From a virus (lineage: Duplodnaviria > Heunggongvirae > Uroviricota > Caudoviricetes), in IMG/VR virus record IMGVR_UViG_2617271049_000013, positions 1 through 10,234 of that record: a stretch of DNA of 10,234 nucleotides. One strand, given 5' to 3'. Shown here one piece after another: positions 4,256 to 6,487 of the stretch (position 1 is its first letter; every line of letters starts with the position of its first letter). A program made the translations under genes and the position numbers. The notes under the pieces were generated by a model. That model did not search any database, was not told the origin of the DNA, and worked only from the letters and a program-made list of their open reading frames with translations.

Positions 4256-5383
4256 AACTGCATCAGTGACAGCTTCAGCGGTTTCAGTATCGATGGCGTG
4301 GCGGATTTTGTGCAGAACGACGTCGTTGGTAATGTCAGCACAATGCTTGGGTATGTTTCTGATGCGATGAAAGTGGTGGATTCTGCCGTATCGGATGCTG
4401 CCAGGCTGTTGCAGGGGGATATCTCGGTACTTCTGCCGCCACCATCGTCAGGCAAAAATTTCGTTGAGCAGGTGCAGAAAATGTGGCGTACCGGGAAACG
4501 CCTTTATAGTAACGCCAGCGACCTGGTCACCATGATCAAAACGCTTTCTGGTGTCAGCCTCGGCAGCGATTTGCAACCGCGCGGCGTCTGGAAAACGGAC
4601 AGTAAAACCACCGCCACAGCGACGCAGCAGCGTAACATGGTTGCCAGCACCCTTCGTACGACTGCAATCAGCGAAGCGGCGTATGCCGTTACCCGTGGTA
4701 ACCCCCAGACCGGCACGCCTGCTACCGATCTGGATGATGACTACTTTGACATGTTGCAGGAGGAACTTTGCAGCGTGGTGGAGGCATCCGGTGCCAGCCT
4801 GGAGAAGGGGCGGCACGACCAGCTGCTTACCGCGCTTCGTGCGCTGCTGTTAAGCCGCAAGAATCCGTTTGGCGATATCAAATCGGATGGCACAGTACCA
4901 ACGGCTCTCGAAAACCTTGGTTTGGGAGAAGGTTCGGCATTACCCGTTGGTGTGCCTGTTCCGTGGCCTTCAGCCACTCCGCCAACAGGATGGCTGAAAT
5001 GCAATGGTGCGGCTTTTTCTGCTGAAGAATACCCGGAACTGGCAAAGGCTTACCCGACAAATAAATTGCCTGATTTACGCGGTGAGTTTATTCGTGGCTG
5101 GGATGATGGAAGAGGAATTGATAGTGGAAGGGGGATTCTCACTGCGCAATCTCATGGTATGCCGTCTATTTCAGGAACGTTTAATGGTCTTTTTGCTGTT
5201 AAACAAACAAATGGTTTAGGTGGTGTTTCTGTAGCAAAAAGTACAAATGCTGAAACTTTATCTACTTCATCTGGATCAGGTTCCGTGTTTGATTACACGT
5301 TTAATGTCAGCGGTTCGACTCCGGTATCACCAGAACTTCGTCCGCGTAATATTGCATTTAACTATATCGTGAGGGCAGCCTGA
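4256..5383 (+). CDS. Side tail fibre protein, 3' portion (5' end unresolved because of the gap)
   Basis: Frame is open from the gap to the stop at 5381-5383. C-terminal region [19 protein letters not shown]...[23 protein letters not shown]...[17 protein letters not shown]...[14 protein letters not shown] matches the collar/C-terminal pattern of enterobacterial prophage side tail fibres (Stf family). Its stop overlaps the start of the downstream tfa (TGATG). Confidence 0.75.
4905..4930 (+). other. Candidate Hin/Gin/Pin-type inversion crossover site inside the tail-fibre gene
   Basis: CTCTCGAAAACC-TT-GGTTTGGGAGAA is an imperfect 12-2-12 palindrome (9 of 12 arm positions symmetric) resembling hix/gix sites (TTCTTGAAAACC..GGTTTTTGATAA). 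It lies exactly at the codons for the conserved tail-fibre NLGLG junction. Confidence 0.5.
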
Positions 5384-5985
5384 TGAATAAAGCCGTATTA
5401 AATATCGAGCTTATTGCCACGAAGGCGGGGAATATTACCGTCTATAACTATGACGGCGAAACACGGGAATATATTTCCACATCAAATGAATATATCGCTG
5501 TCGGCGTCGGTATCCCGGCAAGTTCCTGTTTAGATGCTCCTGGCTCATATAAAGCTGGTTATGCAATTTGCCGTTCTGCAGATTTTAACTCATGGGAATA
5601 TGTGCCAGACCATCGCGGTGAAATCGTCTATAGCACCGAAACAGGAGAATCAAAAGAAATCACAGCTCCGGGTGATTACTCTGAGAATACAACCACTATC
5701 GCCCCGTTAACGCCGTACGATAAATGGGATGGTGAGAAATGGGTGACCGATACTGAGGCACAGCATAACGCCGCAGTAGACGCGGCAGAAGTACGGCGCC
5801 AGTCACTGATTGATGCTGCTATGGCTTCCATTAGTCTGATTCAGCTGAAATTGCAGGCCGGACGGAAGCTGACGCAGGCAGAAACAACCCGGCTGAACGC
5901 GGTGCTGGATTACATTGACGCGGTGACAGCAACAGATACCAGCACCGCGCCAGATGTCATCTGGCCTGAACTGCCGGAGGCGTAG
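5383..5985 (+). CDS. Tail fibre assembly protein (Tfa)
   Basis: 200-aa ORF translationally coupled to the tail-fibre gene. C-terminus LDYIDAVTATDTSTAPDVIWPELPEA matches the conserved Tfa C-terminal motif. Confidence 0.8.
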   Translation: MNKAVLNIELIATKAGNITVYNYDGETREYISTSNEYIAVGVGIPASSCLDAPGSYKAGYAICRSADFNSWEYVPDHRGEIVYSTETGESKEITAPGDYSENTTTIAPLTPYDKWDGEKWVTDTEAQHNAAVDAAEVRRQSLIDAAMASISLIQLKLQAGRKLTQAETTRLNAVLDYIDAVTATDTSTAPDVIWPELPEA

Positions 5986-6271
5986 GCCATTCAATATCTG
6001 GCGCACCGGAAGTATCAACCAGCTCCAGTGCGTCCAGATAATCCAGCCACAAATTATATTGCGCCAGTTTCTCGCCTTTCAGACGACCAATAGCAGATTT
6101 GCCAGGCCATTGCTTACCGTTCATGTAATCGTTGGCATGGTTAATCAATAATTGCCTTTCTGATTCGGTCTGTTCAATAAGTACCTCATGTGATGGTGGA
6201 GGTATTTCAGCACATGTGGGCAAACCATTTTCTTCTGCAACGCGGATTTTCCCTTGTGGCGGTTCCGCCAT
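5957..6271 (-). CDS. Alternative tail fibre assembly protein (Tfa'), opposite orientation; likely 5'-truncated or fused
   Basis: 104 aa from the first Met, ending LDYLDALELVDTSGAPDIEWPTPPAVQAR (Tfa C-terminal motif). Convergent with the + strand tfa with a 29-bp overlap. My hand translation of the minus strand shows the frame stays open upstream of the Met to about 6440 with no start codon (see findings). Confidence 0.6.
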   Translation of the reverse strand: MAEPPQGKIRVAEENGLPTCAEIPPPSHEVLIEQTESERQLLINHANDYMNGKQWPGKSAIGRLKGEKLAQYNLWLDYLDALELVDTSGAPDIEWPTPPAVQAR

Positions 6272-6487
6272 ATATGCTACAGAAATGTCATCAGGGATAT
6301 CTAATGCATCAGCGGGCCATGTTCCATTTACTTCATAAGTATTTTTTAGATTAACAGCATAAGGATCATTTACCGTTGTTGGAAGACCAAAACCCGGTAC
6401 GACGAAGCGAAATACTTGCTGGAACTGGAAGCGCGAAAGTCGCCCTTACTGAAGCCATAAAAAGCTTGTCGAATGTCTCAGGGCGTG

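Follow-up and report, generated by a model that had tools for sequence, protein, structure and literature searches.

The tail-fibre region described here is very probably a dead inversion switch of the e14 Pin/pix type, which was locked by a single old replacement. It lies in a 10,234-nucleotide stretch of DNA that was analysed as a whole and is here called the window. The initial annotation had proposed that a tail-fibre cassette was fixed in a single orientation by a deletion or replacement, and this was borne out for a replacement: where ancestral DNA once stood there is now a piece of an IS110-family element, followed by a segment with a gene for an acyltransferase. The type of system is already known, i.e., the locus is a decayed member of the e14 Pin/pix system, and it reflects ordinary prophage decay together with a gain of cargo of a familiar kind.

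The e14-type island and its tail-fibre genes

The window was 100% identical to GenBank HG977190.1 (assembly GCA_000731355.1), including a run of 10 Ns at 4246-4255, and its proteins carry the species label Escherichia coli. In that assembly, the complete island spans about 11 kb between icd and icdC. Its order is icd, a 59-amino-acid ORF, a HEPN_Toprim_N protein, a 309-amino-acid ORF, int, xis, a 176-amino-acid ORF, a DNA_circ_N::Collar fusion, tfa, a truncated tfa', the acyltransferase gene, remnants of pin and mcrA, and icdC. As reference loci we used two of K-12-type e14 (L001 and L002) and a P2-like prophage with an intact tfa' (L003). Homology between the window and K-12-type e14 came in blocks, comprising int/xis (1695-2517, with 86% DNA identity), the constant part of the tail fibre with the beginning of its variable part (4689-5123), tfaE together with the 3' half of the tfa gene in inverted orientation (5331-6272), the final 69 bp of pinE plus the 5' part of mcrA (7757-8357), and icdC, iraM and ycgX (8362-10234). 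The right end of the island carries two remnants:

7932-8357, + strand: mcrA remnant, frameshifted (from the ORF list); it corresponds to L001 5610-6208, and a deletion of about 460 bp follows at 8357/8362, with the match resuming from L001 6669 onwards
8544-8708, + strand: icdC, the displaced icd 3' end (an Iso_dh fragment), at which the e14-type island ends on the right; iraM and ycgX come next

By these features of its sequence, i.e., integration in icd, a displaced icd 3' end, e14-like int and xis, and the order stf/tfa/pin/mcrA, the window is an e14-type prophage remnant at icd of E. coli. An Rfam scan of the whole window gave no family at the gathering score, and no match resembling a tmRNA or a bridge RNA.

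In K-12 e14 the P segment and PinE (stfP-tfaP-tfaE-stfE-pinE) occupy the same icd/icdC-iraM site as the window. The proximal 26-bp crossover site is identical in the two, the constant part and tfaE are 91-95% identical, homology extends into tfa', and the 3' end of pin and mcrA follow in the same order. Unlike K-12 e14, the window has no distal site, no Sv' (the variable partner in stfE/stfP), no start of tfa' and no pin codons 1-141; it has the IS110 fragment and the acyltransferase gene instead, and its mcrA is degraded. The cargo beside icd also differs, being the HEPN_Toprim_N gene and the 309-amino-acid ORF in the window, at the position where K-12 carries lit/ymfD/ymfE.

The tail-fibre and assembly genes of the window are arranged as follows:

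3813-4688, + strand: 5' part of a Mu-type DNA-circulation gene (Pfam DNA_circ_N, E = 3.7e-35), fused in frame to the tail-fibre gene
4689-4916, + strand: Sc, the constant part of the e14-type tail-fibre gene, from codon 22 (RGNPQTG...), with 95% DNA identity to L001 3001-3435
4905-4930, no strand: proximal 26-bp crossover (pix) site, the sole one left, an exact match to the e14 site (PMC12529663)
4917-5383, + strand: Sv, the variable C-terminal part, with a Collar domain (Pfam, E = 2.8e-15)
5383-5985, + strand: tfa, an intact, tfaE-like assembly gene of 200 amino acids (Pfam Caudo_TAP, E = 9.7e-32), with 91.5% DNA identity to the K-12 tfaE region
5957-6362, - strand: tfa', an inverted second assembly gene without its first 13 codons and start codon (Pfam Caudo_TAP, E = 4.5e-25)

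The run of Ns at 4246-4255, which is also present in the source scaffold, falls within the fused reading frame; in relatives free of Ns, the fusion is called as one 519-amino-acid DNA_circ_N + Collar product. Compared with another relative (L024), the window has a 4.2-kb deletion, with a 7-bp overlap at 4689-4695, that took what remained of DNA_circ_N along with gp44-gp48 and the first 21 codons of stf. Within Sv, a hypervariable stretch at about 5123-5331 was unlike K-12 and the relatives, and alignment gaps spanned about 5109-5348. Protein alignment gave the missing N-terminus of tfa' as MNQYIYSPSENAF. Instead of two alternative fibre C-termini with their own assembly genes, the window thus holds intact Sv and tfa, a truncated tfa' and no Sv'. 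The cassette had been described as a host-range switching module, a framing that fails for this strain, which has lost its baseplate genes and whose tail-fibre ORF is fused as DNA_circ_N::Stf. Because of this fusion and deletion, the cassette has no plausible virion or fibre function in this strain, and from its sequence none would be expected.

One crossover site and an invertase remnant

The sequence CTCTCGAAAACCTTGGTTTGGGAGAA at 4905-4930 was the unique match in the window to the e14 crossover site, with 0 mismatches, and no match was seen in any of 200 shuffles (0/200). All 26 of its 26 bases agree with the proximal site in K-12-type e14 (L001/L002 3217-3242), so that the initial annotation was correct in calling this a good site. 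It includes the 16-bp repeat TTGGTTTGGGAGAAGG, identified as the e14 inversion repeat by Kirigo et al. 2025 (PMC12529663). Protein comparison showed that the site overlies conserved tail-fibre codons for the motif ENLGLGEG, and coding constraint on this motif most simply accounts for its survival.

No further 26-mer in the window came within 7 mismatches of the four reference sites, and an inverted-repeat search of 4300-8000 found no pair matching a site pair. There is therefore a single exact site, and not two inverted 26-bp sites flanking a segment. The longest inverted-repeat pair (5169-5212/6341-6384, 75% complementary) enters the IS remnant and was judged to be due to chance.

The recombinase gene was represented by one feature:

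7697-7825, + strand: pin 3' remnant, C-terminal helix-turn-helix part only, corresponding to PinE residues 143-184

This remnant consists of 42 in-frame codons after two stop codons, with 52% identity to PinE over those residues (E = 6e-13), and its residues 2-42 aligned with annotated phage DNA invertases. The earlier proposal that the invertase survives only as this 3' remnant was upheld. No intact invertase gene was present in the window or in the whole island, and the 42 codons left do not make up a serine recombinase with a catalytic domain.

The enhancer is likely to have been lost as well. In the Gin and Cin systems, it lies inside the 5' part of the invertase gene. No sequence in the window aligned with L001 4407-5609, the interval in which e14 has its distal site and the 5' end of pin, and the window has no counterpart of that stretch. 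By analogy with Hin, Gin and Cin, the Fis-dependent Pin enhancer would have lain in the lost 5' region of pin. The Hin enhancer is about 100 bp from hixL, and an enhancer-dependent invertasome is built from a recombinase, a pair of 26-bp sites and an enhancer in cis to which Fis is bound (PMC3798978). As the window keeps a single site, lacks the catalytic domain and would have lost the enhancer, the segment should be unable to invert; since there is no second site to pair with, inversion would not be rescued by an invertase provided in trans or by one from elsewhere in the genome.

Exact-protein look-ups in NCBI, ENA and Logan assemblies retrieved 23 related loci (L006-L016 and L018-L029), which differed from the window by 0 to 3.5%, with varying hypervariable Sv alleles. 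All were collinear with the window, the 40-nt junction between tfa' and the IS fragment was identical in 23 of 23, and the inverted segment was absent from all of their assemblies. The same junction and collinearity in loci that have diverged indicate one old event, and this pattern of sequence points to a replacement that happened once, long ago. The relatives also show decay of a later date. L024 and L025 keep the Mu-type tail-module genes visible in them, i.e., the DNA-circulation gene, preceded by the tape-measure gene end, gp44-48 in full or for the most part, and a fibre of 249 amino acids. L015 has a separate deletion, from 3893 to 5735.

In L018-L023, the e14 homology breaks within the left half of the pix site. 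The adjoining DNA reads, in its unrearranged form (L038), CCAAAAATCTTCC, a weak quasi-site, and the break might represent an invertase-mediated deletion. Together with the finding that PinQ, PinR and PinE all act on the K-12 e14 sites in trans (PMC12529663), this is what favours the view that the orphan pix site, an outside pix-like or quasi-site and an invertase of the PinQ/PinR type from elsewhere still rearrange the segment or a larger part of the chromosome. However, the L018 junction sits in AAAA..CTT microhomology, which illegitimate recombination would explain equally well, and the collinearity of all 23 loci with the window speaks against continuing rearrangement. In addition, the enhancer in cis, with its position assigned by analogy, would be gone, and a second site was absent in the 20 kb around the island, the formal scan being that of the window. 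We regard continued rearrangement as improbable.

The replacement and its breakpoints

The DNA between tfa' and the pin remnant comprises the following features:

6359-6362, no strand: left junction, an ATAA microhomology common to tfa' and the IS; homology to tfa' of L003 ends at 6362 and homology to the IS begins at 6359
6363-6495, + strand: 3'-end remnant of an IS110-family element, 133 bp, with 97% and 94% identity to L004 and L005, respectively
6496-7696, - strand: foreign AT-rich segment (32% GC, assigned by GC content), carrying the acyltransferase gene
6549-7598, - strand: intact acyltransferase gene, 349 amino acids (Acyl_transf_3, Pfam E = 4.2e-20)

The intact tfa' of L003 is 92% identical to that of the window as far as 6362. 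The IS remnant contains approximately the last 33 codons of the transposase (about 100 bp, with the stop at 6458-6460) and a 35-bp right end. The two copies compared come from a Klebsiella-type virulence plasmid in E. coli J53 (L004) and from an unrelated chromosomal site (L005). These two and the window diverge right after GAAGCGGAC at 6495, and the divergence of three contexts at the same point makes 6495 the right end of the IS. The full element is about 1.52 kb, of which about 9% is present in the window, the catalytic domain, the left end and the 5' non-coding region all being missing. The 3' ends of annotated IS110-family elements (ISEsa2-like) were 89-99% identical to 6363-6495, and a search for further IS110 pieces in 6496-7760 returned only chance matches of 10-14 nt.

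Compared with L002 and L003, the ancestral loss was about 0.9 kb (Sv' and the distal site, with 38 bp of tfa' on one side and the promoter and codons 1-141 of pin on the other), and the gain at the replacement was 1.33 kb. The right junction, at about 7697, was placed only by similarity of the encoded protein, since known pin alleles match at DNA level from 7757. A scan of 6300-7950 for promoters and terminators gave fewer promoter-like sites than were found in shuffles. A replacement by an IS110 fragment plus an acyltransferase gene was not found in the literature searched, in a search not aimed specifically at such a replacement.

These junctions bear directly on the distal crossover site. 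The initial annotation had recognised a degenerate partner at about 6381-6400, with the inner half (GGTTTTGG) kept, the outer half replaced and a breakpoint near 6396. There is indeed an 8-mer resembling an inner half, CCAAAACC, at 6387-6394, roughly where a distal site might be expected. However, it is at chance level (expectation 0.4; present in 69 of 200 shuffles), and the best 26-mer starting in 6360-6420 had 13 mismatches in 26 to known sites (13-14 for the 26-mer at the proposed partner), with 319 window 26-mers being as good or better. The stretch lies inside the IS110-family remnant, which is 97% identical to elements found elsewhere, and the copy in L004 carries the same CCAAAACC. Moreover, in e14 (L001/L002) the distal site, TTCTCCCAAACCAACGTTTATGAAAA, is directly upstream of pinE, and in the P2-like prophage L003 tfa' is followed by Sv', a near-identical distal site and a recombinase; i.e., in intact cassettes the site falls between Sv', beyond its outer end, and the invertase gene just downstream, and not 25 bp from the start of tfa'. 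A degenerate site at 6381-6400 is thus very unlikely, and on the evidence of these alignments the true distal site is entirely removed. The actual left junction, at 6359-6362 in codon 14 of tfa', is about 35 bp away from the breakpoint that had been proposed.

Sv and tfa share 88-92% identity with stf-tfa modules that are fixed in HK97 and in P2-like phages, but it is scarcely credible that this lineage never had an invertible cassette and carries a native fixed module as in HK97 or lambda. A pix site without mismatches, a tfa' that is inverted and cut short at its 5' end, and the 3' remnant of an invertase, all in the right order and orientation, can have been left only by a complete cassette. 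Nor is it realistic to see the junctions as an assembly artefact or scaffold chimera; although the run of Ns marks the source as a scaffold, it lies 2 kb from the junctions, which recur in independent NCBI assemblies (including the complete chromosomes CP057465.1 and CP099208.1) and in ENA and Logan contigs.

The acyltransferase segment stands out by its GC content of 32%, compared with 48% in the tail-fibre module. Its gene encodes a full-length Acyl_transf_3 domain (PF01757, 72.5 bits against a cut-off of 31, residues 3-329). The DNA of the gene gave no match among 5,426 complete E. coli genomes, the protein gave none in the phage collection by tblastn, and no relatives were confirmed among GTDB species representatives. 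The nearest non-identical relatives were 72% and 63% identical and came from metagenomes and sequencing-run assemblies. Some of the related loci carry copies shortened to 335 or 307 amino acids. NCBIfam gave no match for the acyltransferase, nor for either of the two unknown ORFs or the two short remnants. From its family, the enzyme probably O-acetylates a surface polysaccharide and would be a lysogenic-conversion cargo; it looks like the only cargo gene in the region under study on which selection might act.

Order of events and comparison with known switches

The ancestor would have had the layout Sc / pix / Sv - tfa - tfa' (inverted) - Sv' (inverted) / pix / pin. A single early replacement would then have removed about 0.9 kb, from codon 13 of the inverted tfa' through Sv' and the distal pix site to the pin promoter and codon 141 of pin, and left in its place the 133-bp IS110-family 3' end and a 1.2-kb low-GC acyltransferase segment. 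Later, in this strain, a 4.2-kb deletion would have fused the DNA-circulation gene to the tail-fibre gene, with loss of the baseplate genes. The locus would have been fixed in the orientation that connects Sc with the variable part on the tfaE side and its chaperone. We infer this order of events, including that of the arrivals of the IS and the acyltransferase segment.

A more ambitious interpretation is that the replacement was a selected trade, in which an e14-family phage lineage, some of its members with Mu-type tail-module genes as in L024/L025, exchanged its host-range switch for an O-acyltransferase that modifies the cell surface. The orphan pix site would still be a substrate of PinQ/PinR-type enzymes acting in trans, with possible rearrangements at quasi-sites, of which the L018-type junction within the site might be a hint. 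We consider this unlikely and prefer the reading of the locus as a dead e14-type switch.

As such a dead switch, the locus can be set beside related systems. Mu G/Gin, P1 C/Cin and Salmonella H/Hin use the same family of sites, i.e., a 26-bp imperfect palindrome on a conserved tail-fibre motif, and the same logic of Sc, Sv-U, inverted U'-Sv' and an invertase. In contrast with these switches, the window no longer has the full minimal set of two sites, a recombinase and an enhancer (PMC3798978).

The closest parallels are mutants of K-12 itself. One repeat is lost when either stfP or stfE is deleted, and both deletions put an end to inversion-dependent protection against phage T2, although PinQ, PinR and PinE can act in trans (PMC12529663). 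The window is the natural equivalent of these laboratory-locked e14 mutants (delta-stfE, delta-stfP and delta-pinE; Kirigo et al. 2025, NAR, PMC12529663), although they have lost one repeat or the recombinase, whereas the window has lost both a site and the recombinase. We also considered whether the locus was locked in the anti-T2 "StfE2" state of K-12. The orientation is collinear with that state, but the receptor-binding tip is unrelated, and this idea was rejected; because the hypervariable tip is unrelated to that of K-12 StfE2, the anti-T2 effect is not transferable to the window locus.

By itself the locus carries little weight, adding one more route by which a switch is lost in a cryptic prophage and correcting the map of the locus. 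However, e14 inversion was given a role in defence against phage T2 in a 2025 report (PMC12529663), and a naturally locked allele with an acyltransferase gene instead of the invertase in E. coli lineages is a possible natural control for the importance of inversion outside K-12.

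The fused tail-fibre gene and its variable tip

The features of the tail-fibre region and of the ORF preceding it are as follows.

3227-3757: conserved ORF of 176 aa (33% GC), directly upstream of the DNA-circulation gene
3813-5383: tail-fibre ORF, in which the N-terminus of a Mu-type DNA-circulation protein is joined in frame to codon 22 of e14 stf
4246-4255: run of 10 N, interrupting the fusion ORF in its DNA-circulation part

The fusion originated in a deletion of 4.2 kb with a 7-bp overlap at 4689-4695, using as reference L024, one of the two related loci with the most complete tail module. 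In relatives without the N run, the fusion is called as a single protein of 519 aa. The source scaffold, HG977190.1, carries the 10-N run too, which makes it a scaffold gap rather than a masked stretch. The 176-aa ORF matched neither Pfam nor NCBIfam when these were searched. In L024 and L025 it is flanked by the tape-measure and DNA-circulation genes, and it is retained even in L015, the most deleted relative.

Within Sv, the variable C-terminal part of the tail fibre, the hypervariable tip (5109-5348) differs among the window, K-12, L002 (one of two e14 references) and the L018/L024 groups, despite flanking DNA that is 94-98% identical. The cassette, although locked with respect to inversion, is thus still undergoing allelic replacement by recombination.

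The L018-type break at the pix site

We compared one group of related loci, L018-L023 (e.g., L018 10690-10760), with the window at 4905-4930 (the surviving pix crossover site) and with L038 at 5930-6030. In L018-L023, e14 homology begins at window position 4911, which falls within the pix site, in its left half, and the DNA to the left of the break belongs to another icd island. L038, which carries the unrearranged form of this left-side DNA, has a weak quasi-site here (...TTCTGACCAAAAATCTTCCATTTC...). An old invertase-mediated event at a quasi-site could account for the break; so, equally, could illegitimate recombination in the AAAA..CTT microhomology.

Possible defence cargo at icd and the mcrA remnant

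1-930 and, outside the window, L009 (a related locus) 17980-19317: 309-aa ORF and HEPN_Toprim_N protein of 445 aa, between icd and int
7932-8362: mcrA, frameshifted 5' fragment only

Searches of Pfam and NCBIfam gave no match for the 309-aa ORF (30% GC). Since the same position in K-12 e14 is occupied by lit/ymfD/ymfE, this ORF and the HEPN_Toprim_N protein are possible defence cargo. Relative to K-12, about 460 bp are deleted at 8357/8362, after the mcrA fragment.

A hairpin at the IS110 right end

A perfect 12-bp hairpin, AAGCGGACTATG - ATTATAA - CATAGTCCGCTT, lies at 6485-6515 and spans the right end of the IS110 remnant (6495); the left arm consists mostly of IS sequence, the right arm of flanking DNA. 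The flanks of two other IS110-family copies (L004 and L005) were without a complement to the left arm. The hairpin may reflect either the IS target or the terminator of the acyltransferase gene.
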